Shown here one piece after another: positions 4,757 to 36,329 of a stretch of DNA of 51,056 nucleotides (positions are counted from its first letter, which is position 1; every line of letters starts with the position of its first letter). A model generated the notes under the pieces. The model had not been told where the DNA came from. It did no database searches and was given only the letters and a program-made list of their open reading frames with translations. The DNA comes from a virus (taxonomy: Duplodnaviria > Caudoviricetes): positions 1 through 51,056 of IMG/VR virus record IMGVR_UViG_3300030095_005945; one strand, given 5' to 3'. A program made the translations under genes and the position numbers.

Positions 4757-5198
4757 AGAAGAAATAGCTAAAAGAAAAAAAGAAAGAATGGCAGCCAAAA
4801 GGCTAATGATAGATAAGTTAAGGTTTTGGGTAGGCGTATTTAGTGTACCTACAATCTTAATTATGGCTTGTATGCTTATAGGTGCTGCTTATTTTCTTGG
4901 CGAATCACAATTAGCTGTAGTAACAGGTCTTATTTCGACCATAACGATAGGTTTAATCAATGTTCTCAATGGAATGGTAGTACCACCAGCTCCAGAGGAT
5001 CCATTAGCTGTAGTGGCTAAGGATTTGGTTCACCACTTACAGGACCAATCTCAAAAAGATATGGAAGTGTCTATGGATAGAAATACAATTAAAATTGGAG
5101 GGAATGGAGTAAAGATGGAATCTAAAACTCCTGGCGATCCAGTATGGGGAGATGATACTCCTTTAACTAATAAAAAAAGGAAACCAAAAAGTAAATGA
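4740..5198 (+). CDS. Membrane protein with two TM helices
   Basis: Two adjacent hydrophobic segments flanked by basic termini. Confidence 0.65.
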   Translation: MANLSKEEIAKRKKERMAAKRLMIDKLRFWVGVFSVPTILIMACMLIGAAYFLGESQLAVVTGLISTITIGLINVLNGMVVPPAPEDPLAVVAKDLVHHLQDQSQKDMEVSMDRNTIKIGGNGVKMESKTPGDPVWGDDTPLTNKKRKPKSK

Positions 5199-6019
5199 AA
5201 AACATGCATGATTATAGCAAAGTAGTAAAAGCAATGAGAGATTTTTTTCAAGAAGAAAAAGGTTTTATAGAAGTACCTGCTCAAAGCAGACAATCTATAC
5301 TAGCAGCTTGTGAAGATCCAGCGACAATAACAAAATATGAATTTAATAATGTTATTTGGCCTTTACCTCAAACAGGGCAAATGTGGTTAGAAATAGAATT
5401 GTTAAAAAATCCTGATGTAAAAGGTGTATTTTGTGTAACAACAAGTTATAGAAATGAGCCTAATCCTATAGCAGGAAGACATGAAAAGATATTTCCTATG
5501 TTTGAATTTGAATCACATGGCAATATCAATGATATGATTAAATTAGAAGAAGAATTATTAATGCATTTAGGGTTTGGATCTATGCATGAAAAAATAATGT
5601 ATGATAAAGCTTGTAAGAAATACAATACTATGGAATTAGATTATGATGAAGAAGAAGCTTTATGTAAAGATTTTACACCTTGCACTTTTTTAACTCACTT
5701 TCCATTAAGGACACATCCTTTTTGGAATATGAAACATGCTGGTACAGGTATATACAATAAAGTAGATGTTATAATGCATGGTATGGAAACTATAGGTTCT
5801 GCTGAAAGAGCTACTGATATACAAGAGATGAGAGATCAATTTCATAATATATCAGATGGTGAATATGCTAAATTACTTTATGGTCATTTTACTAAAGAAA
5901 GAGTTGAAAAAGAGTTAGAGGAATACTTATCTTTAGATATGTTTGAAAGGTTCGGTGGAGGTATAGGAGTTACTAGAATGGTATCTGCTATGAAGTCTGC
6001 TAATTTACTTGGGGCGTAG
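5195..6019 (+). CDS. Class IIb aminoacyl-tRNA synthetase paralog lacking the anticodon-binding domain (Asp/Asn-RS-like; possibly archaeal-type asparagine synthetase A)
   Basis: Motif 1 FFQEEKGFIEVP, motif 2 YRNE...RHEKIFPMFEFE, ETIGSAER, motif 3 GGGIGVTRM; only 274 aa with no N-terminal OB fold. Confidence 0.85.
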   Translation: MKNMHDYSKVVKAMRDFFQEEKGFIEVPAQSRQSILAACEDPATITKYEFNNVIWPLPQTGQMWLEIELLKNPDVKGVFCVTTSYRNEPNPIAGRHEKIFPMFEFESHGNINDMIKLEEELLMHLGFGSMHEKIMYDKACKKYNTMELDYDEEEALCKDFTPCTFLTHFPLRTHPFWNMKHAGTGIYNKVDVIMHGMETIGSAERATDIQEMRDQFHNISDGEYAKLLYGHFTKERVEKELEEYLSLDMFERFGGGIGVTRMVSAMKSANLLGA

Positions 6020-6082
6020 CACAATGGCAGTTGCAACGGACTGTTAATCCGAGGGTTGTAGGTTCGACTCCTACCGCCCCAG
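6010..6082 (+). tRNA. tRNA-Asn (GTT), CCA not encoded
   Basis: Acceptor stem TGGGGCG/CGCCCCA, discriminator G, D arm GCA/TGC, anticodon arm CGGA-CTGTTAA-TCCG, T arm GTAGG-TTCGACT-CCTAC. Confidence 0.93.
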
Positions 6083-6091
6083 CAGAAAGGA

Positions 6092-6879: not shown

Positions 6880-6957
6880 ATGCCTTACGGTAAAGGGACA
6901 TATGGTAAAAAAAGAGGAAGACCACCTAAGAAGAAATCTGGTAAAAAAGGAAAATAA
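6880..6957 (+). CDS. 25-aa basic AT-hook-like peptide
   Basis: MPYGKGTYGKKRGRPPKKKSGKKGK; AAGGAG RBS; TAATG-coupled to the next gene. Confidence 0.7.
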   Translation: MPYGKGTYGKKRGRPPKKKSGKKGK

Positions 6958-9900
6958 TGCCTAAAAAGCTACATGAAATAAAGGGATTTCACACTGGTAC
7001 TATTAGTAATCCATCTGAAACTGACGTTCCAGCTGATTCAAATGTTAGTAGTTTAGACATAGACAATCATTTATCAGCTGGATCTTTAAAAGGTAGATAT
7101 GGGAATAAGAGTTATGATACTGGTGGATATACTACAAATAATTATACAAATGGAGTATTTACTATTGTTATTACTGCAGCTAATACTAGTCATGCTTTGA
7201 ATAATTTGAATTTCAATATAAGTTCTCCACATAATGATTATTTGTTCTATCTTAGCTCGACAGGAGCTTCTCCTGCAGCACAACCACCAGCTGCTAGATC
7301 TGGCACTGAAGATGAAAATGTTATACAAATTCAAGTTGATATAACAAATAATGATACTATAGATCAAGTAGGTGAAAAAATTAGAGCCAAAATAAATACT
7401 ATAGGTGTATTTAGTGCTTCTTATAATGTTAGTAATGATACTATTACAGTTACTCAAGGTAGAAAAGGAATTTTTAATGCTCCAACTGCAAATAATTCAG
7501 GATTTACTTTTGCAGTAACAACTCCTGGTGTTTTATATAATATAGATACTAAAAGTTCTATTTTTATAAAAGATGGAGAAGAACATGATTTTTTTTATGT
7601 TGATAATTTTACAAATAGATTAAATAGAATATCTGATTTTTACAATAAAAATAGCAATCAAGAATTAAAAAAAGGCAATGACATATCAGATCAAGAATTA
7701 AGTCTTTCTAAAACTAATAAAATCATAACAGCAGGAAGAGGGAAATCATTAAATCCGAAAGCTTTTGGATATTTGAATAACGATAGTTTGGAAGGGCAAA
7801 AGGGAAATTATTTTGAATCTGATGCTGAATTAAGCCCTCCTGATGGAACTAATCCTTTTGGTAGATTTACTAGAATTATAAAAGTTTCTAATGATGATAG
7901 TGGATTATATGGATATATTAAAGGACAACCATATATATGGAGAATTAAATTTGATCATACAAGCGCAGGAACATTAGGCTCAGCTTTTAGAAGTTCTAAA
8001 TTAAATTTTAAAGTAGATCATATGTGTAATTGTGTTTCTGCTAGTGCATCTGATAGTTATGTATGGATTTATGATGGTCCTGGGAATGACCCTAATTCTC
8101 TTGAGTATAATTCATTTTCAAATAAAAATTATAATGATGATGAGACAGAAGATAATCCAGGAAGTTTTTATAAATTAAAAGTTAATGCTGGTACTCCTAT
8201 TGATTGGGAATCTTCTCCTCCAGTTTTAAGTTCATTAAAACAAGTAAATATAGCTTTTGAAACAAATAAAGCTATGGATTGGACTCATGATAATACTGAT
8301 AGTAATGAATATTATTCTGGAAAAGCAAGATTAGGTGATATGATGGAAACTGGAAATCATACAAAAGGAATTTTATGGTTTTTAATAATTCCAGTTTATT
8401 CTGATGAAAATGAATTATCTCAATGGTTTAGATTTACAAGAATAAATTGGATAGGAAATGATGCAAGTGGAAATCATAATGGATATGATGAGCCAAATTC
8501 AATAGCTAAAGGCATAGCTAATAGTATTCCAAGATGGTTATATGCTGCTAATGGAATGGAAGCAGTAGATGAGTCGGGTGGAGTAGAGACTATAACTTTT
8601 AATGATAAAACACCACAACATATGGGTTTATTAGAAACAAGAGGTAATACAAATTTACAAAACAATCCTCTTAACCTTCCTATATATCAAAATTATTCAG
8701 GATTTTCATTTAATGATGGAAATAAAGGAATGACGGAAGGTATTTGGGCGTTTTTCTATAATTTTACATACAAAGAATCCGATCAAACTTTTACAATGAC
8801 ATCGTATGATGCTCATGATGCTACTCACCAAACTGTTTATACTATAGCTAAAAATATTGGTATGATTTGCGCTCATAATTTTTCTCAATATATAGGAGAT
8901 AATTGTGGAACTGCAAATAGAAGATGGACTGATACTGGAGCTGGAGCATCTAATATTGGAGATGATGTTCTTCCAAGAATTGCTCCTTTAGAATTTTCAT
9001 TAGTAAACTTATCTGCTGATTATGGAATAGATGAAGATGGTGGCAGTGGAAATGCAGTAGTAGGTTGTATGACTAAATATAATACTCAACCTAGTGGAAT
9101 ATGGCTAGTTAATAGAATAGATTCTCAATGTAATAATAGTGGCTCAAATAGTTATTGGAATGGGATGATATGCGATACAGTAGATAGTAATTCAGGAACC
9201 TATGTAGAAGGCTCTAGCAGTGATGAGTATAGAGTTGACGTATCTGGTAAAACTGTAATGTATGTTTGTAGTTATTTAGGAAATGAAGGCGCTATGCATA
9301 TGAATGATACAGATGGCTGGACAAGTGCTGCTGCTGGAGGTGAGCCAGCTGGATTAGGTAATGATGGTGATTTTGCAAGTGGTGCTCATAAAACATCTAC
9401 AATGACATCTGATGCACCAGATACTGCATTAAGACAAGCTAGGCTTTTTAATAATGATGATTTTAATACTATATCTCCATCAGATTTTCATGGTGTATCT
9501 ATGATACGAAAAGTTGGTACAGATTCGCAAGCCAATACTGATAATGCTTCTAGTAAGGAATCTACCTTTTTTGTTTTATATAAAAAACATCAAATTTATG
9601 GACCTGAAAATTTTGAATATTTTACAAAACTATTAGCTCTTGATGCAAGAGTTTGTAGTAATAACAAAGGGACTGCTGCATCTGGAGATGTTGATGCAAA
9701 TATATTTGAAGGAATTGCTACTTTTAATCAATCATCATATAGTATATCATTTGATGGGGATGGAGATTTAGATGGCTTAGGTACGATATCTGCTCATAAT
9801 CCAAGGATGCAAGATCCTACTTTTGTTGTAGAAGAATTTAATGCTGGTGGTACTGGTAATGCAATTGGTTTACATTCTAAAACTGTAGATACTAGATTAG

Positions 9901-11429
9901 TATTTTTTGATAGGTCAGGATCTATGTCTTTAAAAGTTATGGATTTAGTTACAGATGATTATTTAATTAATTCAACAGATCCTGTTGATCAAGATGCAAA
10001 CAATGCTAATGAAAATTATACTTTTGAAGCTTTTGGTCAAACTTTAACAGATTTTGGTTTTGGAGGATCCGATTCTATTATATCTGCTTTTACACCATCA
10101 GCACATAGTCAAAGTAAAAGTAATTTTATATATAATACTACTTATTATTATAAAGTATCATTTCTTTATGATGGATACCAAGAAAGTCCTTTAACTTCAT
10201 TTCCATGGACATTTAATGCGAATGCAGCAGATAGCGGAAATTATAATGCTGATACTGATAACTATGAACAATTAGAATTAAGTTTAAAATTATCTAATAT
10301 AGTTCCTAGAATTTCGCATTTAAATATTTATAGAACTGATGATCCTAATAAATTATATAGATTAATTAAATCTATTCCTTTAGACAGTACTTGGGTAGAG
10401 GATGAAAATCAAATTTTTCAAAAAACATATATAGATATTGGGAATAGCGGTGCTAGTTATGAAGCTATTAATAATATGCCACAAGATTTAAGAAAAACAC
10501 AGCCTAATTATACAATTTCTGAAGTATTTGAAGGGTCTTTATTTATTGGAAATTGCTATCATTCTAATATAGTTGATGGTTCTACTTATATTTTTAAATC
10601 TCAGCCTGGAAATTTTAATCAATTTAATTGGTCTCAAGATTTTTTAAAGTTACCAAATACTCCTACTGCAATGAAATCTTATTTAGGGAGACTATATGTT
10701 TGGGATGAAAGTAATATGTATGTTGTTAATTCTAATTTAATAATAGAAGATACATATGAAGGAATAGGATGTTTAAATTCTAAGGCAGTAACATCTTGTG
10801 ATGCAGGAATGTGTTTTGCTGATTCTAATAATATTTATTTACAAACACAAGGATATCCGCAAATAATATCAAATCCAATTGCTACTGCAGGAGACAGCAC
10901 AGGCTATCAAGATTTATTAAATCCATCTACATTTAATCCTAAAATTTATTATATATCAAAGATTACATCATTTATAGTTATAGTAAATAGTTCTTTTTCT
11001 TGGCTTTATAATGTTAGCTCTAGAAGATGGGATAGATGGACTACTACTAATATAGAATCTGGTATTTTAGGGAAAGATAATGAATTACTTTTATCTGAAA
11101 CTTATGGAGAATTTCATAATTTAGCATGTAATTCTGCTAGTAGAGAAAATTATACTTGGAAAAGTAAAAAATTAACTATGGGATTTGATAGTCAAGATAA
11201 ATTCTTTAAAAAGACAAGAGTAACAGGTACTAATGCTAATGTTATAGATACGACTGCTACATCTAAAGGATCACTTAGCCCTACCTATACAGATGATACT
11301 GATAATGCTGAGTATACACATCCAACAGGTGCTACTAGAAAAGGTAAATGGATACAATATACTATTACTAATGAATCAAATGAAGTTGATTCTATTGCTA
11401 CTATATATAGAGATAGGAATGTTAAATAG
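6957..11429 (+). CDS. Large tail structural protein (nozzle/stabilisation-protein-like, beta-rich)
   Basis: 1490 aa rich in N/D/S/G; C-terminal propeller-like segments (GIGCLNSKAV, WLYNVSSRRW, YTWKSKKLTMG); gene position. Confidence 0.6.
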   Translation: MPKKLHEIKGFHTGTISNPSETDVPADSNVSSLDIDNHLSAGSLKGRYGNKSYDTGGYTTNNYTNGVFTIVITAANTSHALNNLNFNISSPHNDYLFYLSSTGASPAAQPPAARSGTEDENVIQIQVDITNNDTIDQVGEKIRAKINTIGVFSASYNVSNDTITVTQGRKGIFNAPTANNSGFTFAVTTPGVLYNIDTKSSIFIKDGEEHDFFYVDNFTNRLNRISDFYNKNSNQELKKGNDISDQELSLSKTNKIITAGRGKSLNPKAFGYLNNDSLEGQKGNYFESDAELSPPDGTNPFGRFTRIIKVSNDDSGLYGYIKGQPYIWRIKFDHTSAGTLGSAFRSSKLNFKVDHMCNCVSASASDSYVWIYDGPGNDPNSLEYNSFSNKNYNDDETEDNPGSFYKLKVNAGTPIDWESSPPVLSSLKQVNIAFETNKAMDWTHDNTDSNEYYSGKARLGDMMETGNHTKGILWFLIIPVYSDENELSQWFRFTRINWIGNDASGNHNGYDEPNSIAKGIANSIPRWLYAANGMEAVDESGGVETITFNDKTPQHMGLLETRGNTNLQNNPLNLPIYQNYSGFSFNDGNKGMTEGIWAFFYNFTYKESDQTFTMTSYDAHDATHQTVYTIAKNIGMICAHNFSQYIGDNCGTANRRWTDTGAGASNIGDDVLPRIAPLEFSLVNLSADYGIDEDGGSGNAVVGCMTKYNTQPSGIWLVNRIDSQCNNSGSNSYWNGMICDTVDSNSGTYVEGSSSDEYRVDVSGKTVMYVCSYLGNEGAMHMNDTDGWTSAAAGGEPAGLGNDGDFASGAHKTSTMTSDAPDTALRQARLFNNDDFNTISPSDFHGVSMIRKVGTDSQANTDNASSKESTFFVLYKKHQIYGPENFEYFTKLLALDARVCSNNKGTAASGDVDANIFEGIATFNQSSYSISFDGDGDLDGLGTISAHNPRMQDPTFVVEEFNAGGTGNAIGLHSKTVDTRLVFFDRSGSMSLKVMDLVTDDYLINSTDPVDQDANNANENYTFEAFGQTLTDFGFGGSDSIISAFTPSAHSQSKSNFIYNTTYYYKVSFLYDGYQESPLTSFPWTFNANAADSGNYNADTDNYEQLELSLKLSNIVPRISHLNIYRTDDPNKLYRLIKSIPLDSTWVEDENQIFQKTYIDIGNSGASYEAINNMPQDLRKTQPNYTISEVFEGSLFIGNCYHSNIVDGSTYIFKSQPGNFNQFNWSQDFLKLPNTPTAMKSYLGRLYVWDESNMYVVNSNLIIEDTYEGIGCLNSKAVTSCDAGMCFADSNNIYLQTQGYPQIISNPIATAGDSTGYQDLLNPSTFNPKIYYISKITSFIVIVNSSFSWLYNVSSRRWDRWTTTNIESGILGKDNELLLSETYGEFHNLACNSASRENYTWKSKKLTMGFDSQDKFFKKTRVTGTNANVIDTTATSKGSLSPTYTDDTDNAEYTHPTGATRKGKWIQYTITNESNEVDSIATIYRDRNVK

Positions 11430-16767: not shown

Positions 16768-19700
16768 ATGGAAGATTATCAAAACCCAACTGAAGATTAC
16801 TCTTTTAAGCCTGTATACACAGCAGATTTAACTAATCGTTTAGTTACTAATTATAGAAAAAATCCTAATAAATTCAATGAAAAACTTGTTTCTCAATTAG
16901 AGGAGCATGCTAATCATTATAATATTGGATTTAATCGTGATACTACGTCTGATGATTTTAATGCAATAGATACTATAAAACAAGTTGGAACTGGATTTAT
17001 GTCTGGTTTTACTACACTTAATTATGGTGAACCCCCTAAAAATCCTTATGAAAATATAGCTCATAGTTTAGGTCATTTAGCAGGATTTGTTGGATGGGTG
17101 CCTGGAGCTCATGCTAAAAGTAGTTTTGCAGCATTAAGAGCTTTATCTGTTTTAAAAGGTAAATCAATTCCACTAGTTGCAGCTAATGCTGTTCAAAAAC
17201 CTGTTTCTAATTTTGCTGCAGAAATGGTTCAAAAAGGTTTTGGAAAAAGAAGCGAAGCTGTATCTGGAGTAGCCAAGTTATTATACAACGATACAGCAAG
17301 AGATGCTGTTGAAGGAGCATTTCATTTGGGTACTGCATCTGCAGTATCATCCTGGACACATGGTGTTGATGCTATGATAGATTCTGCTATACATGGAGGT
17401 GTTGCAGGTGGTGCATTTAGAGGTATAGGAAACTTATTAAAATCTCCTTTACCAAAAGACAATGCAGTAGCAGAAAATGTACTTGGATCTGTTGCTGGTG
17501 CCTTATTTACAGGTCTTCCTGCCACAATGAGGGGAGCTACAGCTCCTGAGCAAGTATACGAATATTTATTAGGTGCATATTTTGGATTTAATGAATCACC
17601 TTCATCAAGAAGAGTAGCACAAAAATATAGATACGAAGAGCTTCAAAAACAACCTACTGCTCAAAAAATGCAAGAAAAGCTTGAAAAAGACTTGCTTAAA
17701 AAAGATTGGTCTCCAGAAACTCAAAAAGTTGTTAGAGAGTTTTCTGAACAAACTATACAAAGCGAACAAGTTATGGAGATAATGAGAAAGCTTGGAAGGG
17801 ACAATCCAGCTCTAAATCAGGCCTTAGAAGCTCGTTTTGTTGCTCAGGAAGGGAAACCTCCTACTCAAGAGCAAATAGAGCGTATAAAGGATAATATATT
17901 CAAAACAGAAACACCTGTTGAGCCTACTGAATTAGCAGATACTCCAAGAATTGAAACTGTAAAAAGATATAACAAAAGTATGCTAAGAGCTAATACTGAT
18001 AAAGTTTATTTATTTGGAGATAATTTAGAAGGTAGAGGAAAGGGTGGTCAAGCTGTAATTAGAGATGAGCCTAATTCATTTGGCATACCTACTAAAAAAT
18101 CGCCTAGAAGAGATTCTGATGCATATTTTATGGATGCAGAATTTGAAGCTAATAAAGTAGCAATAGATAATGCTATAAATGCAATTCCTAAAAATAAAAT
18201 AATAGTTTTTCCAGAAGATGGACTAGGAACTGGGTTAGCAAAGCTTCCTGAAAAAGCTCCTAGAACTTGGGAATATTTACAACAAAGGCTTGAAGGTTTA
18301 AAGAAAGAAGTTCAGTCTGAGAATATGATAAAAGAGATTGAAGTAAAAAATACAGAACAATCTCAAAAAGTTGAACAAGAAAAATTAGAAAGAGAAGATA
18401 CAGGAGTAGTTGTAGATGCTCCATTAAATATAAAAGATTGGGCATCTGATAATATAGTTAAAAGCTGGTTAAAAGAAGATGGAACTACTGATGTATTTAA
18501 AAAGAAAGCTAATATTGAAGACTTAAATTTAAAGCTTAGAGAAAAGATTAAAAATAGAGATATGGACATAGATGAGTTAACTAACTGGATGAAAGTTAGG
18601 TATAACTATGACATTACAAGTCCAGAAGCTACAGAAAGAAACTTTTTTAGAACATTTTTAAAGAGAAAGATTGCTGAACAAAATGTTAGAATAGTATCTC
18701 CTGAGCTTGAAATAGAGTATAAATTCACTCCAAAGAAAAGAAAAGGTAAAGTAGTAAAAGATGAAAGTGGAAATGTAGAGTTTTATAGAAACTTTCAAGA
18801 TATAAAAGATATTAATTTTACTGAGCTTACTCCTGATAACCCTCAAAATATAGCAGGCAATAGAAAGTCTATTAAAATGCCTGTATTTAATATTGAGAAT
18901 ATATATAATTCTATAAAAGGTGGTAATCTGAATCTATCAGATCCAAACCAAAGACCTCTTAGAGTAGTTGATGAAGTTATTATTAAATCTAAATCAGGAT
19001 TTCCAAAAGAAACTAATATGTTAGGCTTTAAAGATCAAGTAGAAAGACAAGTATACAATGACAATTTAAAGTTAAAAGGTCATGTTGCTGCTGAAAGTAT
19101 GGCAAAAAGAGTGTCTGAAGAAGCTTATAATAAATTTATAGGCAATATGTATGAAGGTATGCGAAAGAAGGGTTATTACTACTTTAGTGGAAGAGGTGAC
19201 GCTGATAAAATGATGTTTATGAAATATCATCCTGAAATAGAAGCTAAGAAACCTTATGAAATAAAGCAAATATTAAATGATATTATAAGAGAAAATAATT
19301 ATGATAAAAATCTAATCAATAAAGATAAATCTGATTTTGTTAAAAAGTTTAAAGATTTAAAAATAGCAGATGATGTTTATAACAGAGGATTTGTATCTAA
19401 TTTATATTACAATATGAGTATGAATGGGATTACTCCTGTAAAAGGGAATTATAATTTTGTAAATACCAAAGGATTCATTACTAATCCAATAGCGTTTAAT
19501 AAAAGAGCTCAAATATGGTTTACATCTGGTTATGAAATGGAACCTGCTTTTTTACAAAGAGAAATAAAAGACATGAAAGATGGTCAATTTAGAATGACTT
19601 TAACAAAATCTGTTGATGATTTGCCAGGCGAATTGAGAAAATTACCTTGGGAAAAGATGAAAAATACGGATACTGTAGAGCATGTTGATGGTGGAACTCC

Positions 19701-22700
19701 TACAAGAGATGATGTTATGACTGCTATACACAAAGAAACAGGAATGTACGATCCTTCAAATCCTAGTGGTCATAGTAAAAATATGACAATATCAATAGGA
19801 AACGAAGGTAAAGGTGCTATGCTATTAAAAGATATGAACTTTGATGCTGGAGTAAAACAATCTAAGGCAATGGAAAAGCTTGGAGTACATTTTATGCCTA
19901 ATACTACAGCTGCTAAACAGTATGGTAATAGGAAAGCTATGTTTCATGAGTTTGTAAAAGGTGAGTATAAGTTTTTTAATTGGGTAAAGAAAAAAGGCAA
20001 ATGGGTAAAAGAATATGGTGAACCTGAAATATTTGATGTTGATGTTAGAGATTTAAAAACAGTTCTATCAGAAACAACAGATACTAAGAATATAAAGAAT
20101 AAAAAGCTTGTAAAACAGATGCAGACTAATTTTTCATCTTTAAATAAAAACGTAACACCAGAATTAACAGAACAGTTTTATAATGATTACAATTTAAAGC
20201 ATTTTAATGGTAAACAAAGATATAATGATCTGTTAAAAGAATATGAAGCTACTAAAAATCCTGATTTAATAGAAAGTATAGTAAAAAATATAGAAAATAT
20301 ATCTACAACTGATGTAGCAAGAGTTCTTACTGAGCCTGGATTAGAAGAATTGCAACTAAGACTTTATGAAAAGCTATTTAGAATTAATAGGCAAAATGAA
20401 TTGCTTTCTTTAGAAGAGGGTGAAATTGGTGAAAAGGAAATATCAGATACTATAAGAGAACTTAATCAATACAAATCTACTGCAGATAGGAATCTTAAAT
20501 TAGCAGATAATAATATAGCCGTGTATTTACATAAAGCTCAAAGCCCTTTAAAAAGAAATATAATTAAGAATTACATAGTAGGTCAAATAACTAGACCTTT
20601 AGTTCCAAATTCATTAGGTGGAAGAATAAGGCCTTATGATGTAGAGCTTCAAATAAATCCAGCGACTAAAAGATTAAATAAAGAAAAAGATCTGATATTT
20701 TTAGATGATGGAGCTAAGGGTAAGAAGATAGATTACGAAGATTTAACAGCATTTTTAGAGTCAAGAACTAATCCTATTGTTAGAAAATCCGTTATTAAAC
20801 AGATTACAAAAAATGATACTTTAGAAAAATTATGGAATTATAGAAATGAAGCAGTTGGAACAAAAACTCAAGAATATATAGATAATTTTCTTGAAAGTAT
20901 TACTACAAGAGTTCCTATTGATTCTACAAGCGGATCAGTTGTATTAAAATTTGGTGGATTTACTGGTAGAAAAGGTTTTGGTGGAATAGTTCATGGTGAA
21001 GTTATGTCTAAAATAGGTGGTGCAGATACTGATGGTGATAAATTCTTTAGTTATTTTGGTATTAAACCTGAATATAAACAAGTATTTAGAGATAATGCAA
21101 ATGAATTTGTTAGATATTATAAAAAATCAGAATATTTAAAAAACCCAAATAAATTGACTTCTAAATTAACTAAAGAAGAATACGAAGCTTTACCTAAAAA
21201 AGAAAAAGAAGATTGGTATTCTGCTATATCTAATAATAAAAATGATTGGAGACATTTATATACTATAACAGAAGGAGAAGCTAAAGAAGTAAGACAAAAT
21301 CCTTCTATGTTTTATAGTGTTAATCAGAGAAAAGTTATTTCAGATGTTGCAGCAGATGGTCGTAATAGATTGGGAGTTGCTGTAGTAGATAAACAGAATT
21401 TATTAGCTGCTTATACTGATTTATTTTCAGCTGGCGTAAAAAGTAAGACTATTGAGCCAAGTGGATATGCTGAATACGATGTTAAATTAAGAACTGATGT
21501 AAAACAATTAAGCGAGGCTTTAGAAAAATTAAGAACATCTATAGCTATACCTTCTGATCCATTAGATGAAATTGGAATTAAAGGTAGAAGTGAATACTTT
21601 TCTAATATGTTTGATTCAATATTTGAAGTTACAGCTTATAGAAGAAGAAACTTAAAAACAAAGAAATGGGAAAATAAACCTGTCAGGCAAATAGAACCTT
21701 GGATGAAGCGATATATAATAGCTCCATATTCTAATATAAATTCTGCTTATTATGGTAAGAATTACTCTAAAAACAGGCAATGGACTTATGAAGAAATGAA
21801 AGACAAAGGTTCTTTTATAAATATTATAGCACAAAATGGCGATATAGTTTCTTCTATAGCAAGACAGGGTAGAGATTTGCAGAATATTAATTTCTATGAT
21901 GGGCTTGACAGAAGATTGAATAAAAAATCGGTAGCAAAAGTATATGATGAGTATTCTAAGAATATAAAAGATTATTATGATGTTGCAAAAGCTATAGGAA
22001 AAGCTGGATGGCAGGTTCCTTTAAATAAGCCGATTAGAGACTATTTAGGCTATAAAATAGAAAATATGGATAAGAAGCTACAAGCAGAGCAATTTCTATC
22101 GAATGACATGCATAATATGGCTTCATTTAATCAGTTTATAAAATACTGGAAAGAGATACCTACAGCTAAATTAACTGAAATGGCAAAAAAGGCACAAGAA
22201 ATACAAAATAAATCTTTCTTAAGTAGAATGGAAGATAAAGAAGCTATTAGATATGAAGTTAAGGTAGGTAAAGAAGTAAAAGAATTATCTAGCGAAGAGA
22301 TGAATATATTAAAAAGATCTGGTGAACAATTTGAAGTATTAAGAGATATTCCTTTAGAGAAGAAATCTACTATAGTTACACAGGCAAAAACAGATAAAGC
22401 TATATACGATTATAAAAGAACTTTAAATCCAAAAGAAAGACAAGCATTTGACGCTTTAATAATAAGTGGCTTTAAGCCTGGAGATGGTAAAAATGTAGAT
22501 AAATACTACAAGTTGTTAGACAAAAAAGATAGATTAACGCCTTTAGAGGAGATTGAGCTTGCAAGATTGAGAGATATAGTATATGCTACCAATTCTAATA
22601 GCTTAGGTTTTGCTAGTGAAGCAATATCAGATAATGTTATACAAGATTTTTGGAAGGGTTTTGATGGTGTGTATCATAAGATGTCAAGAAAACCATCTAA

Positions 22701-25700
22701 AGAACTAAGTGAAGATATTGATAATGTTGTTGAATCTGTTAAAAAAGTAGAAACTAAGGTTGGTGAAAAAGAAGTAAAAGCAAATCTTGAAGAAGGTTAC
22801 GAATCTAAGTTAGAAAAATTAAGAGTATTAGATAAGATTCCAGGCTTTAGAAGATTATCAGAGCAAAAAGCAGGTAAAGTAAAGCTTACAAACGAAAATC
22901 AAAAGCTATATGATGAGCTTTTAGACAATTTAAACTCTTATGGTAATAGCATAGGAATTAAGCTTGAAGGATTGATAGCAGATCTATTTAATAAATCACC
23001 AGATGCTATGACCATTGAGGATGTAAGAGCATTTAATCATTTACTTGGCTCAAGAAGAAAAGGTGACAATCTTGGCTGGATACATAATCAATTTATAAAA
23101 TGGACTAAAGGAGATCCAAAGTTAAGTGGATATTTTTACCATATATTCCCAAGAACTGTAGATAAAGCTTGGTTAAAAAAGGATTTAGATCTGGTTGAAA
23201 GAATAGGATATAAATGGGAGCCTGGGAAAAAATTACCTGTTGAATCCATAACATATAAACCATTGCACGCTATAGGGCAGATGCAATATAATAATAATGC
23301 ATTAAATCAAATGGCAGCTCATGAAGTTAATAAAATGGAAAGCAAGATAAGGGATGGATTACAGTTTTTAAATTCCATTAAAGAAGGAACTGAATTGCAT
23401 GAATTAGCTATATACAAAAGAGAATTACCAACTGGGCTTGCTTTATTTGAAAGTGGTGAAAAGATAAAAGCTACAGCTTATGGCGTAAGGAATGGCAGAT
23501 TACAGCCAAAGATTCAAAAAAGAATAGATGAGTTATCTGATAAAAAATATAGAATTTTAGATGGAAAGACTAAAAAGGATCTTACTGGTAGTCAAATAAT
23601 GGATAAGATTAATAAGTTTTGGAATAAAACATTTGATGATATGTATAATAATTGGATTTTTGGGGATAATCAATCTATAAAAAGATTTGTTTCTAGAGAT
23701 AAAAAAGGAGTAGAGTCTGGTAATATTGATACTTTTATAAAAGAAATTACAGACGCTATTAAAGAAGGTAGACCAGTACATGAAGCTGTTAAAATAGGTG
23801 TAGATGGTATAAATAAAATGGCTACTCATACTCAATTAAGCTTAACTAATAATCCTAAATTAAGAAACAAGCTTTACAATAGACTTGGAGAGTTTACAAA
23901 GTATAGATCAGGATTTTGGGGACATAGAAACTATGAAAAATCTGAAATAGAAAAAGCTTTAAAAAGCAGAATGGAAGAGCTAAAAAAGAAGAATATACCT
24001 GAAGAAGATAGACAGCAAATAGTAAATGAAGCAGCAAATTTAGCATTAAGAATGAGAAATATACAAGATGAATTTGATTTAAGTGCATATAAATCTTGGA
24101 ATATGTTTGATGAAGTTACGGATGCTATAAAAAATAAAATGGTTGATAAAATACAATTTGAAAATGCTGAGATTAGATCGGGACATACTATGGGAAGAAA
24201 GCTTCATATAGCGGGATATGATAGAAGTCCATCAGCAGGGGAAGGATACGCTAAAAGCGTTATAGAGAATTTCTATAAAAATACATCTCAAATATTAAGT
24301 AGAAAAATTATAGATAGATTTGAAAAAGCTAAAAGTCAGAAATATTTAAAAAATGGAAAGATTGTAGATAAGGCTGGGTATGATAATATACAAGCTTGGG
24401 GTAATTTCTTTAAATTATATGCTAATAGAGCGTTGGGCTATCCCGAAGTAATACCAGATTATCTATTAAACAATCCAAATATGGGGATAAAAGGAACGCC
24501 TTATTATTGGTTTGCTGATTCTACTGTTAAAAATAGAATGAACATCATAGCTAAAAAAATGGGTATAAAAAACAAGGATATACCAAAAGAAATAGATGAG
24601 ATGCTATCTTATAATAAAATAAGAAACTGGAGTAATATGGAAGCTAAATATCAATTAGCTACATTATTAGCTCATCCAAAAACTGCGATAGCAAATATAT
24701 TTGGTGGATCTACTATGACAATTCAGTCTGTTGGATTAAGAAATTGGTCAAAGGTAAGAAATTATGAATGGTTAAAAAATAATGTAGATTCTAGTTTTAC
24801 ATCTAGGCAATCTATATATGATCATGTTGTAAAATTAGGTGTTCAAGAAGATTTTTTAAGGAAAGAGATTGGCTTGTCTGGTGCAGCTAAAAGTAAAAAA
24901 GTAAGTGATGGATTAGAGCTTTTGGCTAAAAAGATTAAAAGAGATCCAAGTGTTGAAGATAAAGAGTTAAAAGATATATGGAAAAAATCAGGGTTATCTG
25001 ATAGTTTATTTGAAAAAGCAGCTTATTTTATGAGAAAATCTGAAAGAATGTTGAGAACAGATTCATATATGGCTCATTTATTACAAGGATTAGATATATT
25101 TAAAGGAGCTATAAACGATATTAATCATCCGTTTCTTGTATGGTGGGCTAAAGAAGGTGTAAAAAATACTCAGTTTTTATATGATGCTTCAAATAGACCA
25201 GCTTTTGCATCGAGTGCATTAGGAAAGGTTGTTTCAAGATTCCAAATATGGGCTTGGAACTCAGTTGCTTTTAGAAGTATGGTATATAGAGAGGCCAAAG
25301 AAAGAGGATTTCAAAGAGGAACAAAAGAATTTGAAAGATTTAAAAGAACAATGCAAATGGATCTTATGATGTTTTCTTTAGCAAATGTATTTGCATATAG
25401 TTTATTTGAAAATACTTTACCTGCACCATTAAATTGGTTCCAGGATTTAGCAGATTGGATGTTTGGAGATGAAAGTGAACGAGATAGAGCATTTTTTGGA
25501 GCTTATCCTAAAGCAATAGCACCATTACAAATGGTTACTCCTCCAGCTTTAAGATTATTACCACCTACTATGAAAGCATTATTAGATGATGATTGGAGTA
25601 GAATGTCTGATTATTATTTATGGACGGTATTGCCATTTGGAAGGTTAGCAAGGGATGTTAAAATATCGGCTGAAAATCCAATGCAAATTGTGGAAAGAAG

Positions 25701-25761
25701 TACAGGATTACCTTATATTAAATTACATAGGTATTTAAAAGAGCAAAGAGAACTTGAATAG
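16768..25761 (+). CDS. Giant virion protein, putative single-chain two-barrel RNA polymerase with macrodomain-like insert
   Basis: TRVP...IVHG...GGADTDGDKFF (DxDGD at 21025-21039); HVDGG and downstream lysines near aa 972-1030; LFGDN...GGQA...GIPTK...GLGTGLA at aa ~412-500; Gly/Ala-rich N-terminus. Confidence 0.7.
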   Translation: MEDYQNPTEDYSFKPVYTADLTNRLVTNYRKNPNKFNEKLVSQLEEHANHYNIGFNRDTTSDDFNAIDTIKQVGTGFMSGFTTLNYGEPPKNPYENIAHSLGHLAGFVGWVPGAHAKSSFAALRALSVLKGKSIPLVAANAVQKPVSNFAAEMVQKGFGKRSEAVSGVAKLLYNDTARDAVEGAFHLGTASAVSSWTHGVDAMIDSAIHGGVAGGAFRGIGNLLKSPLPKDNAVAENVLGSVAGALFTGLPATMRGATAPEQVYEYLLGAYFGFNESPSSRRVAQKYRYEELQKQPTAQKMQEKLEKDLLKKDWSPETQKVVREFSEQTIQSEQVMEIMRKLGRDNPALNQALEARFVAQEGKPPTQEQIERIKDNIFKTETPVEPTELADTPRIETVKRYNKSMLRANTDKVYLFGDNLEGRGKGGQAVIRDEPNSFGIPTKKSPRRDSDAYFMDAEFEANKVAIDNAINAIPKNKIIVFPEDGLGTGLAKLPEKAPRTWEYLQQRLEGLKKEVQSENMIKEIEVKNTEQSQKVEQEKLEREDTGVVVDAPLNIKDWASDNIVKSWLKEDGTTDVFKKKANIEDLNLKLREKIKNRDMDIDELTNWMKVRYNYDITSPEATERNFFRTFLKRKIAEQNVRIVSPELEIEYKFTPKKRKGKVVKDESGNVEFYRNFQDIKDINFTELTPDNPQNIAGNRKSIKMPVFNIENIYNSIKGGNLNLSDPNQRPLRVVDEVIIKSKSGFPKETNMLGFKDQVERQVYNDNLKLKGHVAAESMAKRVSEEAYNKFIGNMYEGMRKKGYYYFSGRGDADKMMFMKYHPEIEAKKPYEIKQILNDIIRENNYDKNLINKDKSDFVKKFKDLKIADDVYNRGFVSNLYYNMSMNGITPVKGNYNFVNTKGFITNPIAFNKRAQIWFTSGYEMEPAFLQREIKDMKDGQFRMTLTKSVDDLPGELRKLPWEKMKNTDTVEHVDGGTPTRDDVMTAIHKETGMYDPSNPSGHSKNMTISIGNEGKGAMLLKDMNFDAGVKQSKAMEKLGVHFMPNTTAAKQYGNRKAMFHEFVKGEYKFFNWVKKKGKWVKEYGEPEIFDVDVRDLKTVLSETTDTKNIKNKKLVKQMQTNFSSLNKNVTPELTEQFYNDYNLKHFNGKQRYNDLLKEYEATKNPDLIESIVKNIENISTTDVARVLTEPGLEELQLRLYEKLFRINRQNELLSLEEGEIGEKEISDTIRELNQYKSTADRNLKLADNNIAVYLHKAQSPLKRNIIKNYIVGQITRPLVPNSLGGRIRPYDVELQINPATKRLNKEKDLIFLDDGAKGKKIDYEDLTAFLESRTNPIVRKSVIKQITKNDTLEKLWNYRNEAVGTKTQEYIDNFLESITTRVPIDSTSGSVVLKFGGFTGRKGFGGIVHGEVMSKIGGADTDGDKFFSYFGIKPEYKQVFRDNANEFVRYYKKSEYLKNPNKLTSKLTKEEYEALPKKEKEDWYSAISNNKNDWRHLYTITEGEAKEVRQNPSMFYSVNQRKVISDVAADGRNRLGVAVVDKQNLLAAYTDLFSAGVKSKTIEPSGYAEYDVKLRTDVKQLSEALEKLRTSIAIPSDPLDEIGIKGRSEYFSNMFDSIFEVTAYRRRNLKTKKWENKPVRQIEPWMKRYIIAPYSNINSAYYGKNYSKNRQWTYEEMKDKGSFINIIAQNGDIVSSIARQGRDLQNINFYDGLDRRLNKKSVAKVYDEYSKNIKDYYDVAKAIGKAGWQVPLNKPIRDYLGYKIENMDKKLQAEQFLSNDMHNMASFNQFIKYWKEIPTAKLTEMAKKAQEIQNKSFLSRMEDKEAIRYEVKVGKEVKELSSEEMNILKRSGEQFEVLRDIPLEKKSTIVTQAKTDKAIYDYKRTLNPKERQAFDALIISGFKPGDGKNVDKYYKLLDKKDRLTPLEEIELARLRDIVYATNSNSLGFASEAISDNVIQDFWKGFDGVYHKMSRKPSKELSEDIDNVVESVKKVETKVGEKEVKANLEEGYESKLEKLRVLDKIPGFRRLSEQKAGKVKLTNENQKLYDELLDNLNSYGNSIGIKLEGLIADLFNKSPDAMTIEDVRAFNHLLGSRRKGDNLGWIHNQFIKWTKGDPKLSGYFYHIFPRTVDKAWLKKDLDLVERIGYKWEPGKKLPVESITYKPLHAIGQMQYNNNALNQMAAHEVNKMESKIRDGLQFLNSIKEGTELHELAIYKRELPTGLALFESGEKIKATAYGVRNGRLQPKIQKRIDELSDKKYRILDGKTKKDLTGSQIMDKINKFWNKTFDDMYNNWIFGDNQSIKRFVSRDKKGVESGNIDTFIKEITDAIKEGRPVHEAVKIGVDGINKMATHTQLSLTNNPKLRNKLYNRLGEFTKYRSGFWGHRNYEKSEIEKALKSRMEELKKKNIPEEDRQQIVNEAANLALRMRNIQDEFDLSAYKSWNMFDEVTDAIKNKMVDKIQFENAEIRSGHTMGRKLHIAGYDRSPSAGEGYAKSVIENFYKNTSQILSRKIIDRFEKAKSQKYLKNGKIVDKAGYDNIQAWGNFFKLYANRALGYPEVIPDYLLNNPNMGIKGTPYYWFADSTVKNRMNIIAKKMGIKNKDIPKEIDEMLSYNKIRNWSNMEAKYQLATLLAHPKTAIANIFGGSTMTIQSVGLRNWSKVRNYEWLKNNVDSSFTSRQSIYDHVVKLGVQEDFLRKEIGLSGAAKSKKVSDGLELLAKKIKRDPSVEDKELKDIWKKSGLSDSLFEKAAYFMRKSERMLRTDSYMAHLLQGLDIFKGAINDINHPFLVWWAKEGVKNTQFLYDASNRPAFASSALGKVVSRFQIWAWNSVAFRSMVYREAKERGFQRGTKEFERFKRTMQMDLMMFSLANVFAYSLFENTLPAPLNWFQDLADWMFGDESERDRAFFGAYPKAIAPLQMVTPPALRLLPPTMKALLDDDWSRMSDYYLWTVLPFGRLARDVKISAENPMQIVERSTGLPYIKLHRYLKEQRELE

Positions 25762-26664: not shown

Positions 26665-27525
26665 TTAAAATATATACCTTATTTCTTGCCAAGGTATGTG
26701 TTTATTATGATTTTCTAAGAATTTATTTATATACATACGTTTTGCTTGGTATCTATATCTAATATTTACACCACCGTATTGTGATATTTTTCTTTCTTGC
26801 AATCTAGGTTCCCATAAAAAGCCTTCTCCTTTAACATTGTGTATTATGTTATATTTATGCATTTTTTCGTTATGTGTTAAGAATATGCATTCTGCTTTTA
26901 CATAAGGCTTTATGCTTGGGTCTACTATATTGTCTACTAATTTAAATAAATCTCTATAATCCTCTTTATGATTTTCATACATTATTATTGGAGAATAATT
27001 TATATGAACATCATATCCAGCTTCATAGAAATCATTTATTGCTTTTATTCTGTCTACAATTTTACTTGTACCAGGTTCTAATTTGTCTGATAATGATTGT
27101 GGCATAAGACTAAATCTTATTCTAATCTTTCTGTCAGGATCATAATTTAACAAATCTTTATTTACATATTTTGTAGCAGCTGTACCCATGGCTTTTTCAT
27201 GATATTTAAAATAATTAAATATTAAATTCCAATCATGGTAATTAGCGTGCAATACAAAATCTTCGTTACAACTAAAATCATATGTATAATATTCTTTATG
27301 TGTTTGATTCTGCTGTTTAGGCCAAGACAATTCTTCACAATGCTTTTCTATAGCTATTAATATATCTTCAGGATTATTAGCTATTGTTAAGCCAGAAGGA
27401 ACATGTCTTCTCATATAACAGTAAGAACATTTATACATACATCCAAAGCCAAAGCTTGGTGTTATATAATCACTACTTCTACCAGATTCTCTGATAATCA
27501 TAGCTTTTCTATTTACATATCTCAT
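26665..27525 (-). CDS. Spore photoproduct lyase (SplB)-family radical SAM protein
   Basis: GCMYKCSYCYM (CxxxCxxC), DFSCNED, ATKY, RIRFSL, GYDVHINYSPII, NIRYR. Confidence 0.8.
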   Translation of the reverse strand: MRYVNRKAMIIRESGRSSDYITPSFGFGCMYKCSYCYMRRHVPSGLTIANNPEDILIAIEKHCEELSWPKQQNQTHKEYYTYDFSCNEDFVLHANYHDWNLIFNYFKYHEKAMGTAATKYVNKDLLNYDPDRKIRIRFSLMPQSLSDKLEPGTSKIVDRIKAINDFYEAGYDVHINYSPIIMYENHKEDYRDLFKLVDNIVDPSIKPYVKAECIFLTHNEKMHKYNIIHNVKGEGFLWEPRLQERKISQYGGVNIRYRYQAKRMYINKFLENHNKHIPWQEIRYIF

Positions 27526-35050: not shown

Positions 35051-35300
35051 TACTATCTCCTTCTGGATTTTTATGAAATAGTATATAGTTTTTAGCTAAT
35101 GTATTCCATACAACCATAAATGCTGTAGCTACATGAAACCGATGCTCTTTAGGCAATGCTTCTGTAATCATATCAACATATTCTTGTGCTGTTTGAATAT
35201 CTTTTCTTGAAGCAAATATAGTATGCTCTTTCATATCTACATACGGAAGCTTACTAACTACCTCCATTAATTTATCTCTATTTTCACTCATTTGACTCAT
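35043..35300 (-). CDS. Early hypothetical protein
   Basis: ORF track; AAGGAGG RBS. Confidence 0.65.
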   Translation of the reverse strand: MSQMSENRDKLMEVVSKLPYVDMKEHTIFASRKDIQTAQEYVDMITEALPKEHRFHVATAFMVVWNTLAKNYILFHKNPEGDSNE

Positions 35301-35413
35301 TTGACCTCCTTGTGGATCATTTTGTACAATATGAATGCAACAATAGCTAAATGCATCATTGATTCTGTTGTACTGTTTATTAAATAAATATACTCATATA
35401 GTTTATCACCCAT
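35297..35413 (-). CDS. 38-aa membrane peptide
   Basis: AGGAG RBS; MGDKLYEYIYLINSTTESMMHLAIVAFILYKMIHKEVK. Confidence 0.5.
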   Translation of the reverse strand: MGDKLYEYIYLINSTTESMMHLAIVAFILYKMIHKEVK

Positions 35414-35432
35414 ATGTTCTCCTATAAATTAT

Positions 35433-35502
35433 AGAGCAGGGCATACTGGCGTATTCATGTATGCTATTTAAAGAGAGCTACTCTTCCTTGCCACTCTGCT
35501 CT
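35433..35502. ncRNA. End-paired structured RNA element A (70 nt)
   Basis: Closing stem AGAGCAG/CTGCTCT; inner GCATAC/GTATGC and AGAG/CTCT; strand ambiguous. Confidence 0.45.
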
Positions 35503-35517
35503 TTTTGTACAAATACA

Positions 35518-35585
35518 AGAAGGTATCAAATATGGATATCATTTATTAAGCATTACCGCTCCACTTTCGTTAAATGATACCTTCT
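35518..35585 (-). ncRNA. End-paired structured RNA element B (68 nt)
   Basis: Perfect 11-bp closing stem AGAAGGTATCA/TGATACCTTCT. Confidence 0.5.
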
Positions 35586-35592
35586 AAATTAA

Positions 35593-35850
35593 TGAGACTA
35601 CATTCGTCAGGCCTGGCATAGTCTTTTTATCCTGATTCTTAAGTAGTTATAATGAGGTCTTACTTGTCAATGCCTTATCTGTAAACCCATAGTTCGTCCA
35701 AGGGACTTGCCCTTGAGGCTTTTTTATGTGATTCCGATACCTCTTTTTACAGATGCTTACAATAGTATCTCAGCGTGTTTAGGACTTATATACTAGCTTA
35801 ACTCTGATAATAACATTTATCACTTATCGCCACCCAAAGAGGTAGTCTCA
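35593..35850 (-). ncRNA. Large multi-helix structured RNA candidate C (258 nt)
   Basis: Closing TGAGACTAC/GTAGTCTCA; inner ATCTGTAAA/TTTACAGAT, CAAGGG/CCCTTG, TGATAA/TTATCA, TAGTAT/ATACTA, TCAGG/CCTGA; no ORF of 60 aa or more. Confidence 0.55.
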
Positions 35851-35857
35851 AATTATA

Positions 35858-35974
35858 TTATGCTCCTCGTGCAATCACTTGTGTTTTGCATCTTTTGCAT
35901 ATAAATTTCCTTCTAAATAATTTTATTCCCGAATACTTTCTACATTTACATCTGATATGTTTGTTGATATCCAT
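35858..35974 (-). CDS. 38-aa basic zinc-ribbon peptide
   Basis: AAGGAG RBS; MDINKHIRCKCRKYSGIKLFRRKFICKRCKTQVIARGA. Confidence 0.6.
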   Translation of the reverse strand: MDINKHIRCKCRKYSGIKLFRRKFICKRCKTQVIARGA

Positions 35975-35993
35975 TTATACTCCTTAAAATTTA

Positions 35994-36081
35994 TCCCTGC
36001 TATAGTCTTTGGTCAGAAAGATAATATCTAATCACCAACTTATCCAAAAGTCTATGATTCAATAAGCTACTATAACAGGGA
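35994..36081 (-). ncRNA. End-paired structured RNA element D (88 nt)
   Basis: 13-bp closing stem UCCCUGUUAUAGU/ACUAUAGCAGGGA (G-U only on minus strand) plus two inner hairpins. Confidence 0.5.
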
Positions 36082-36094
36082 ATTTTAATAAAAA

Positions 36095-36168
36095 AGAGGG
36101 ATAGTGAAGTTGAATCTCATCTAAGTGAGAATGATTTTATTCGCATGAACCATCTTGTCTATCCCTCT
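36095..36168 (-). ncRNA. End-paired structured RNA element E (74 nt)
   Basis: Perfect 10-bp stem AGAGGGATAG/CTATCCCTCT, inner TCTCA/TGAGA; followed by a U-run on the minus strand. Confidence 0.5.
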
Positions 36169-36182
36169 GACTCCACAAGATT

Positions 36183-36329
36183 CTATCTCCAGTTTTGATC
36201 TTGATCTTGTACTTGTGAAGCTTGCCATTCTAACTCTTGTAAATCATCACAATGGCATTCAATACTATTACACGCTCTACACTTTAATACTATTTTCATT
36301 TCTTTAAAATACTCCCATACTTTACTCAT
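36183..36329 (-). CDS. 48-aa Cys-rich peptide
   Basis: ATGA-coupled; ...KCRACNSIECHCDDLQELEW... Confidence 0.5.
   Translation of the reverse strand: MSKVWEYFKEMKIVLKCRACNSIECHCDDLQELEWQASQVQDQDQNWR

Follow-up and report, generated by a model that had tools for sequence, protein, structure and literature searches.

The DNA analysed here, called the window throughout, is the whole of an IMG/VR virus record (51,056 bp, ~31% G+C) that is estimated to be 96% complete. Its products include a P22-like portal, a large terminase, a primase-helicase of the PriCT/DnaB type and an AAA_24 ATPase. The best tblastn matches of the portal protein were only ~22–26% identical, so no cultured relative or host can be assigned to this phage, and comparison of the region with 50,697 phage records by blastn gave no match. 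An ORF of 1490 aa (6957–11429) was without any match, and one of 2997 aa (16768–25761, plus strand) had DUF7831 as its sole Pfam match. As the latter protein showed DUF7831 only, we rejected the idea of an N4-like virion RNA polymerase that uses hairpin promoters. The phage also encodes a spore photoproduct lyase/radical SAM family protein (26665–27525, minus strand, E = 5e-22), and a tRNA-Asn (GUU) gene (6010–6083, plus strand) overlaps the end of the ORF at 5195–6019.

Genes on the minus strand from ~26.6 to 38.1 kb form a block of small early ORFs and replication genes. Within it, 880 nt (35301–36182) contain no ORF of 40 aa or more, and the 258-nt stretch studied here (35593–35850) lies inside them. 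Read on the minus strand, the 880 nt are a string of hairpin modules plus two 38-aa ORFs, and may constitute one long modular early RNA. The modules around the 258-nt stretch are a terminator-like module (36095–36168), a hairpin of a type described below as frame E (35995–36080), an 11-bp hairpin (35518–35585) and a terminator-like hairpin (around 35470–35506) that is common to locus L002. One of the small ORFs (35299–35413, minus strand) is hydrophobic, has a ribosome-binding site and is conserved in L002. The other (35858–35974, minus strand) also has a ribosome-binding site, lies directly upstream of the 258-nt stretch and is zinc-ribbon-like (CxC...CxxC). It may resemble phage Mu Com; its Pfam matches were weak (Gin, E = 0.01), and the Com family was absent among those listed at E ≤ 10. 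It is 95% identical in L002, which lacks the motif described below, and 68% identical in L016 and L291, where it lies 7 kb from the motif. As it recurs only at these loci, we rejected it as a partner of the motif. Pfam and PHROGs searches with neighbouring ORFs, in the window and at the other loci, were uninformative (DnaB-like, DUF932 and HNH, at single loci).

The preliminary description had presented positions 35593–35850 of the minus strand as a single multi-helix RNA and a candidate for a new class, with a closing stem, inner helices, a probable switch or pseudoknots and no recognisable family. The four pairings that it quoted are all present. Numbered along the element, these are the closing stem UGAGACUAC (at 1)/GUAGUCUCA (at 250), whose arms lie at 35842–35850 and 35593–35601; a long-range pairing, UACCUCUUU (at 7)/AAAGAGGUA (at 105); GGCAU (177)/AUGCC (232); and UCAGG (216)/CCUGA (240). 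The 258 nt contain three perfect Watson–Crick complementarities of at least 9 bp, compared to a mean of 0.11 in 2000 dinucleotide shuffles, none of which reached three; this number is therefore above chance. When the minus strand of the stretch was folded as a whole, its minimum free energy was that expected of shuffled sequence (z = 0.01, with 89 of 200 shuffles folding at least as well), and the plus strand gave z = −2.30. When the whole window was searched with the 4227 models of Rfam 15, the only match at the gathering score was a tRNA. At E ≤ 10, five sub-threshold matches were found in 35200–36250, none of them within 35593–35850, in line with the preliminary description, which had recognised no known family.

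Comparison with related loci, of which the AAA_24 protein retrieved fourteen and a search with an 85-aa ORF none, resolved the stretch into nested modules. The closest relative, L002 (90% amino-acid identity in a neighbouring gene), keeps both ends of the stretch and has ~38 unrelated bases in place of window positions 35638–35824. The same ends occur in L275, a relative of the window's phage in which the 85-aa ORF is 81% identical. The outer module that is shared in this way, frame F, consists of the closing stem, a UGGC/GCCA pairing and the UCAGG/CCUGA hairpin (35631–35635 with 35607–35611), together forming a predicted outer rod. In the window it encloses a decayed copy of another module (frame A), then a 78-nt hairpin, and then, at the tip, a 27-nt motif. 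The frame F of L275 surrounds a frame A that is intact and has another cargo.

The inner part, a 'long core' together with the remnants of frame A (35671–35788, minus strand), has a different set of relatives. Five viral contigs that otherwise have little in common with the window match 94–118 nt of it at 91–97% identity (118 nt at 91.5% in L108 and L110, 100 nt at 97% in L017, and 94 nt at 93.6% in L016 and L018). Two 14-mer scans gave mostly chance matches among those listed, with L108 and L110 alone being real. The 78-nt hairpin (35677–35754) is closed by a 9-bp stem, AUCUGUAAA (35746–35754)/UUUACAGAU (35677–35685), which the preliminary description did not name and which is the best-supported helix inside the stretch. 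It covaries, with three positions changing on both sides (GUUUAUAAA/UUUAUAAAC in L016, GUCUAUAAA/UUUAUAGAC in L108 and GUCUGUAAA/UUUACAGAC in L303); RNAalifold on five long-core copies missed it owing to misalignment of L016 by MAFFT. A small hairpin, CAAGGG/CCCUUG in the window, becomes CAUGGG/CCCAUG or CAUGGG/CCCGUG in other copies. A further pseudoknot is possible, in which GAUACY/GGUAUC would cross the 9-bp stem; here we saw a one-sided change of U-G to C-G.

Against this background the quoted helices fared differently. The closing stem is identical in all three copies of frame F (window, L002 and L275), so that it is conserved and shows no covariation. The UCAGG/CCUGA hairpin reads UCAAG/CUUGA in both L275 and L002, a compensatory change of one G-C pair to A-U that favours the hairpin as drawn. 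The proposed pairing of GGCAU with AUGCC, in the loop of that hairpin, was not supported: the first strand is GGCAA in L275, L002 has no GGCAU, and the pairing competes with UGGC/GCCA, which all three copies keep. The long-range pairing is not conserved: at the nine other loci with AAAGAGGUA, the 200 nt upstream contain neither the partner nor a single 7-mer from it.

These results bear directly on the switch that had been proposed, in which the closing stem of one 258-nt non-coding RNA would alternate with UACCUCUUU/AAAGAGGUA. Both pairings are perfect 9-mers, and three such pairings in one stretch are far more than chance provides. However, UACCUCUUU belongs to frame F and AAAGAGGUA to the inserted core, which are different modules; each is found without the other (at all nine of the loci above for AAAGAGGUA, and in L002 for UACCUCUUU), and the stretch as a whole folds no better than its shuffles. 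We consider the switch highly improbable. Nor does the stretch hold together as one RNA class, as L002 lacks 35638–35824 and the conserved unit proved to be a hairpin of 43 nt, which is found in many frames that are unrelated to one another. On these comparisons the 258 nt are a lineage-specific nesting of modules and not one conserved RNA. The broader claim, of an RNA-like minus strand with several helices, stands, and the stretch does carry a conserved structured element.

This element, the core hairpin (35687–35729, minus strand), consists of a covarying lower stem (P1), an asymmetric internal loop, a 7-bp upper stem (P2; 35710–35716 with 35698–35704) and the pentaloop CAAGU (35705–35709). 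The internal loop has an A-rich spacer and A-GCC on its 5′ side and ACGAA (35693–35697) on its 3′ side. All copies have in common only the 27 nt GCCUCAWGGGCAAGUCCCNUGGACGAA, present in the window in the near-invariant form GCCUCAAGGGCAAGUCCCUUGGACGAA (35693–35719). The motif is preceded by 2–4 mostly A-rich bases ending in A, while the enclosing P1 differs between copies. Copies were collected by scanning with three degenerate patterns, and a covariance model of the hairpin (R1) matched the window at the above position with 66.1 bits (E = 9e-20), the next best match there scoring 10.8 bits. Over 71 sources, R1 gave 55 clear matches (≥41.9 bits); two further matches of ~21 bits, in GC-rich contigs, look like chance.

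We analysed covariation in an alignment of 60 matches (29 distinct rows) fitted to the model. Paired cells made up 92.9% of the alignment compared to 71.2% in shuffles, and none of 500 shuffles reached this value. All six P1 pairs change on both sides, there are at least a dozen distinct P1 sequences, and sliding the 3′ partners by 1–3 columns reduced pairing to 23–61%. P2 is nearly fixed in sequence: four of its seven pairs never vary and one alternates between UG, AU and UA. It contains two conserved wobbles: one pair is U-G in 24 of 28 rows, and a second pair is U-G in 9 rows. On the other strand these pairs would be C-A mismatches, which points to RNA. Since the homologues were collected by exact patterns, which leave diverged relatives unseen, the apparent invariance of the motif is partly a matter of ascertainment. 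Relaxed patterns returned little that was new. With flanks and loop fixed and the stem free there were 20 stretches, the sole new one being a chance match of high G+C content, and with the loop free there was a single variant, CAGGU, in L314 (404–517), where the hairpin lies 6 nt upstream of a tRNA-Cys gene.

By a simpler count, the number of contiguous flanking pairs (median 5, with 23 of 41 copies having at least 5) is in modest excess over shuffles (mean 3.3, 95th percentile 6), and the window's own copy is weak, with a P1 of 4 bp and z ~ −1. Part of the P1 covariation could have arisen from the hairpin having moved with, or into, pre-existing stems rather than from selection on each pair. 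A coding explanation for the motif was rejected: the commonest form contains an AUG, which is missing from the window and from the many further copies that have CAAGGG instead. On the antisense strand (35699–35725, plus strand), the P2 hairpin is followed by AGGCTTTTTT and looks like a terminator, only in those copies that have the A-rich spacer.

Conserved internal-loop nucleotides between two helices, one of them covarying, could mark a small self-cleaving ribozyme or a ligand-binding aptamer of the riboswitch type. The elements are intergenic in phages, where small self-cleaving ribozymes are common, and the copy next to the tRNA-Cys gene in L314 would also fit. However, the minimal units (L256, L260, L279 and L296) are single hairpins with one internal loop, and have none of the multi-helix junctions, pseudoknots or pairs of docking loops of the small self-cleaving families considered (hammerhead, twister, twister-sister, pistol, hatchet, HDV-like and hairpin). 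P2 and its loop are fixed rather than covarying, and the genes downstream differ between loci, contrary to what a riboswitch would suggest. Rfam matched none of these families: at E ≤ 1, seven other carrier loci gave only a weak match to RAGATH-30, elsewhere in L260 (2155–2209, minus strand; below threshold, at 30 bits where the gathering score is 59.5, E = 0.066). Compared by eye with a range of structures (hammerhead, HDV-like, hairpin-ribozyme loop A, group II domain V, K-turn, sarcin-ricin, boxB, SRP and rRNA segments), the motif is not known to fit any of them. A ribozyme or riboswitch thus seems very unlikely to us.

The motif recurs in viral and marine sequences. The pattern GGGCAAGTCCCNTGGACGAA was found in 21 IMG/VR stretches and 43 marine metagenome stretches, each with a single copy and no arrays, and two motif patterns had no match among 185,579 prokaryote species, each represented by a single genome. 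Of 46 distinct loci, 41 have the motif on the gene strand (one opposite, four ambiguous), and in 43 it lies between ORFs, taking same-strand ORFs of at least 50 aa. The exceptions are ORFs of 52–53 aa at two loci and a 555-aa ORF at one, the last being a GC-rich chance match. The copy number is one in all seven near-complete carriers (the window, all five other carrier genomes and G008), and of the five relatives of this phage with a completeness of 93% or more, four lack the motif, the closest (L002) among them. Clustering of shared genes revealed no co-occurring partner among the neighbours, and the commonest shared gene families lie anywhere from −3.5 to +3.8 kb of the motif, none of them at a fixed distance. 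The hairpin is dispensable and independent of position and neighbours, and its sequence is held more tightly than the structure alone would demand. The string GGGCAAGUCCC is absent from the papers of the library that we searched, and topical literature searches gave no description of the 27-nt motif.

What surrounds the motif is also conserved, in a modular way. At least seven recurrent frames (A, B, C, D, E, F and H) hold it at their apex. Each has its own covarying outer stem and occurs both with and without the motif, the motif-free copies having other hairpins in its place. The outer stem of frame A, for example, reads GAGAGCC/GGCUCUC, GGGGGC/GCCCCC, GGGAGUC/GACUCCC or GGGGAC/GUCCCC. This frame is in itself an uncatalogued conserved RNA (e.g. 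L268 3700–3790, minus strand, and L002 5264–5381), with near-invariant junction strands (AAYAACUGGUCC..URUAAGUC / GCAAAGGAAUAUGU) and two positions that accept variable hairpins. In L309 (5800–6760), an ORF-free tract of ~900 nt holds five frames one after another (B, C, D, H, A), with AU-rich linkers of the type AUUAAUUUAG between them; B alone has the motif, and the other four have different cargo. Folding of the frames gives rods that bear the motif at their tip (z = −2.5 to −4.7), and the folds of L256, L260, L262 and L268 are intergenic hairpins that span about two helical turns and include an internal loop. A terminal U run follows the outer stem in L260, L256, L254 and L268 and is absent in L266, L293, L295 and the window.

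Features of this kind would fit a cis-acting mRNA hairpin, at which RNase III or another RNase would cut, or an exonuclease or polymerase would stop, so that the element would serve processing, stability or termination. The elements occupy intergenic sites within operons, on the gene strand; their hairpins are long and irregular, with ~20 bp or more and internal loops; the frames lie between genes or, as in L309, in tandem with AU-rich linkers; and U runs end some of the outer stems. Against this, general processing signals recur between many genes, whereas the motif occurs once per genome and is missing from close relatives. RNase III requires no fixed 27-nt sequence, the U runs are inconsistent from locus to locus, and the sole terminator-like call at the motif in the window is on the antisense strand, with none on the gene strand. 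A processing hairpin suits the frames better than it suits the single-copy motif, and as an explanation we regard it as unlikely but worth keeping in view.

Two sets of loci show the motif present or absent in one frame, or placed in different ones. Frame E has a 12-bp closing stem (CCCUGUUAUAGU/ACUAUAGCAGGG) with changes of U-A to C-G and of U-G to C-G in L002. Its slot is empty in the window; the copies in L264 and L267 contain a clean insertion of 59–60 nt, which carries the motif and has neither terminal inverted repeats nor target duplications. The second set involves the 85-aa ORF. In the window the motif sits in frame F; in L275 the single motif is in another hairpin, 47 nt before this ORF; and in two marine metagenome runs of one study it is in a canonical frame A, 12 nt before it. 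These different sites indicate that the hairpin has relocated within one lineage while remaining single-copy.

Relocation of this kind, together with the sporadic distribution and the filled and empty sites, is also what a selfish or neutral DNA-level element would produce, that is, a small mobile palindromic cassette or a recombination hot spot, REP/MITE-like or PeSL-like, without any RNA function. Such an element would pass from one co-infecting phage to another through recombination, and T4-type phages are known to shuffle regulatory cassettes as modules (PMC2839356). The occurrence of one site per genome would likewise be expected of a unique DNA site, which counts against the reading that we prefer below. 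However, mobile palindromes of the REP or MITE type are multi-copy, while this motif is single-copy with a P1 that varies between copies, and the frame E insertion has no hallmarks of transposition in its termini. The bias towards the gene strand (41 of 46) and the strand asymmetry of the conserved U-G pairs also argue against a DNA-level role, as does the number of promoter-like sites in the region (7, against 8.3 ± 3.1 expected, using a sigma-70-type model that may not be the host's). We judge an explanation at the DNA level to be rather improbable.

Taken together, the stretch is best described, from its sequence and that of its relatives, as a set of conserved RNA modules nested in one another, in an intergenic position and on the gene strand of the early operon of an uncultured marine tailed phage; its transcription we infer from strand and context. 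What would the hairpin do? As its stem, loop and internal loop are fixed while its surroundings vary and no neighbouring gene is constant, we tentatively favour a self-contained recognition site for a sequence-specific factor, shown at the tips of frames in the early transcript. This is the account that we prefer, and we hold it with some reserve. The putative trans-acting factor would most likely be a host or phage protein. The rod-like frames would both display and protect the hairpin within the early transcript, and the hairpin could act independently of flanking genes, for example by titrating or recruiting its factor early in infection.

A more specific version of the recognition site is conceivable and, in our view, doubtful: that these phages carry arrays of frame RNAs with apical slots, and that the 27-nt hairpin is a portable, single-copy, trans-acting decoy that moves between slots and between phages, with a target such as a host defence protein or RNA-binding protein. 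Were this so, phages would have a modular means, so far undescribed, of transporting and presenting a functional RNA. On the evidence of the frames, the long 'non-coding' early stretches of these phages are arrays of selected RNA modules instead of spacer DNA. The structured RNAs of uncultured marine phages are almost unexplored, and the combination found here, of a fixed 27-nt hairpin without an Rfam match, in exactly one copy in each near-complete carrier examined although close relatives lack it, and at the tip of seven or more frames, is unusual. It is the pattern expected of a portable recognition tag for a conserved factor, and the hairpin is short enough to be easily synthesised as bait for its putative factor.

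How does the hairpin compare to known systems? The REP/BIME, ERIC and Correia elements of bacteria are imperfect palindromes that are transcribed in operons, form hairpins and are inserted at sites rather than inherited there. They are present in multiple copies per genome and in both orientations, unlike the motif, which is single-copy, strand-biased and confined to phages (0 of 185,579 species genomes). The RNase III sites of T7 early mRNA, which is polycistronic, lie between genes and are irregular hairpins containing an internal loop, a shape that the predicted folds of L256, L260, L262 and L268 share; T7 has several such sites per genome, and these need no invariant 27-nt sequence.

Solitary CRISPR-repeat mimics (Racrs) offer a closer likeness. 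Racrs are described as solitary repeat units in viral intergenic regions, 2,103 of which were found on viral sequences including IMG/VR3, and the authors' criterion is at least 90% identity to a CRISPR repeat (Camara-Wilpert et al. 2023, PMC10651486). A decoy of this kind would imitate a host RNA, bind Cas6-type proteins and block assembly of the crRNP. The motif is similarly short (~28 nt), with a central 7-bp hairpin, a fixed stem and loop and short fixed flanks, and it too is a solitary, intergenic, accessory phage hairpin among small early genes, on a mobile element. No CRISPR repeat resembling it was found with two exact patterns in the species genomes or among the Rfam CRISPR-DR families, and it forms no arrays in the 43 metagenome and 21 viral stretches. 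It is also clamped directly by P1 and displayed at the tip of larger frames, whereas repeats in pre-crRNA are flanked by unpaired spacers. We think a Racr an improbable identity for the motif.

The PeSLs (promoter-early stem-loops) of T4-type phages are short conserved cassettes between genes, in regions where small non-essential genes abound, composed of a sigma-70 promoter and a terminator and present in many copies per genome (Arbiol et al. 2010, PMC2839356). Like them, the motif is linked to insertions, deletions and replacements that distinguish close relatives; unlike them, it is single-copy, shows no enrichment of promoters, and its conserved part is a hairpin with an internal loop. Finally, an IMG/VR-wide survey proposed 10,006 candidate structured RNAs, described as covarying intergenic phage motifs that include terminators and cis-regulatory candidates (Fremin, Bhatt, Kyrpides 2023, PMC10690425). 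Since both the data source and the type of object are the same, that list may include the motif or its frames. Conserved intergenic RNA modules of phages are thus already known; the unusual part here is that one such hairpin hops between slots and is kept at one per genome.
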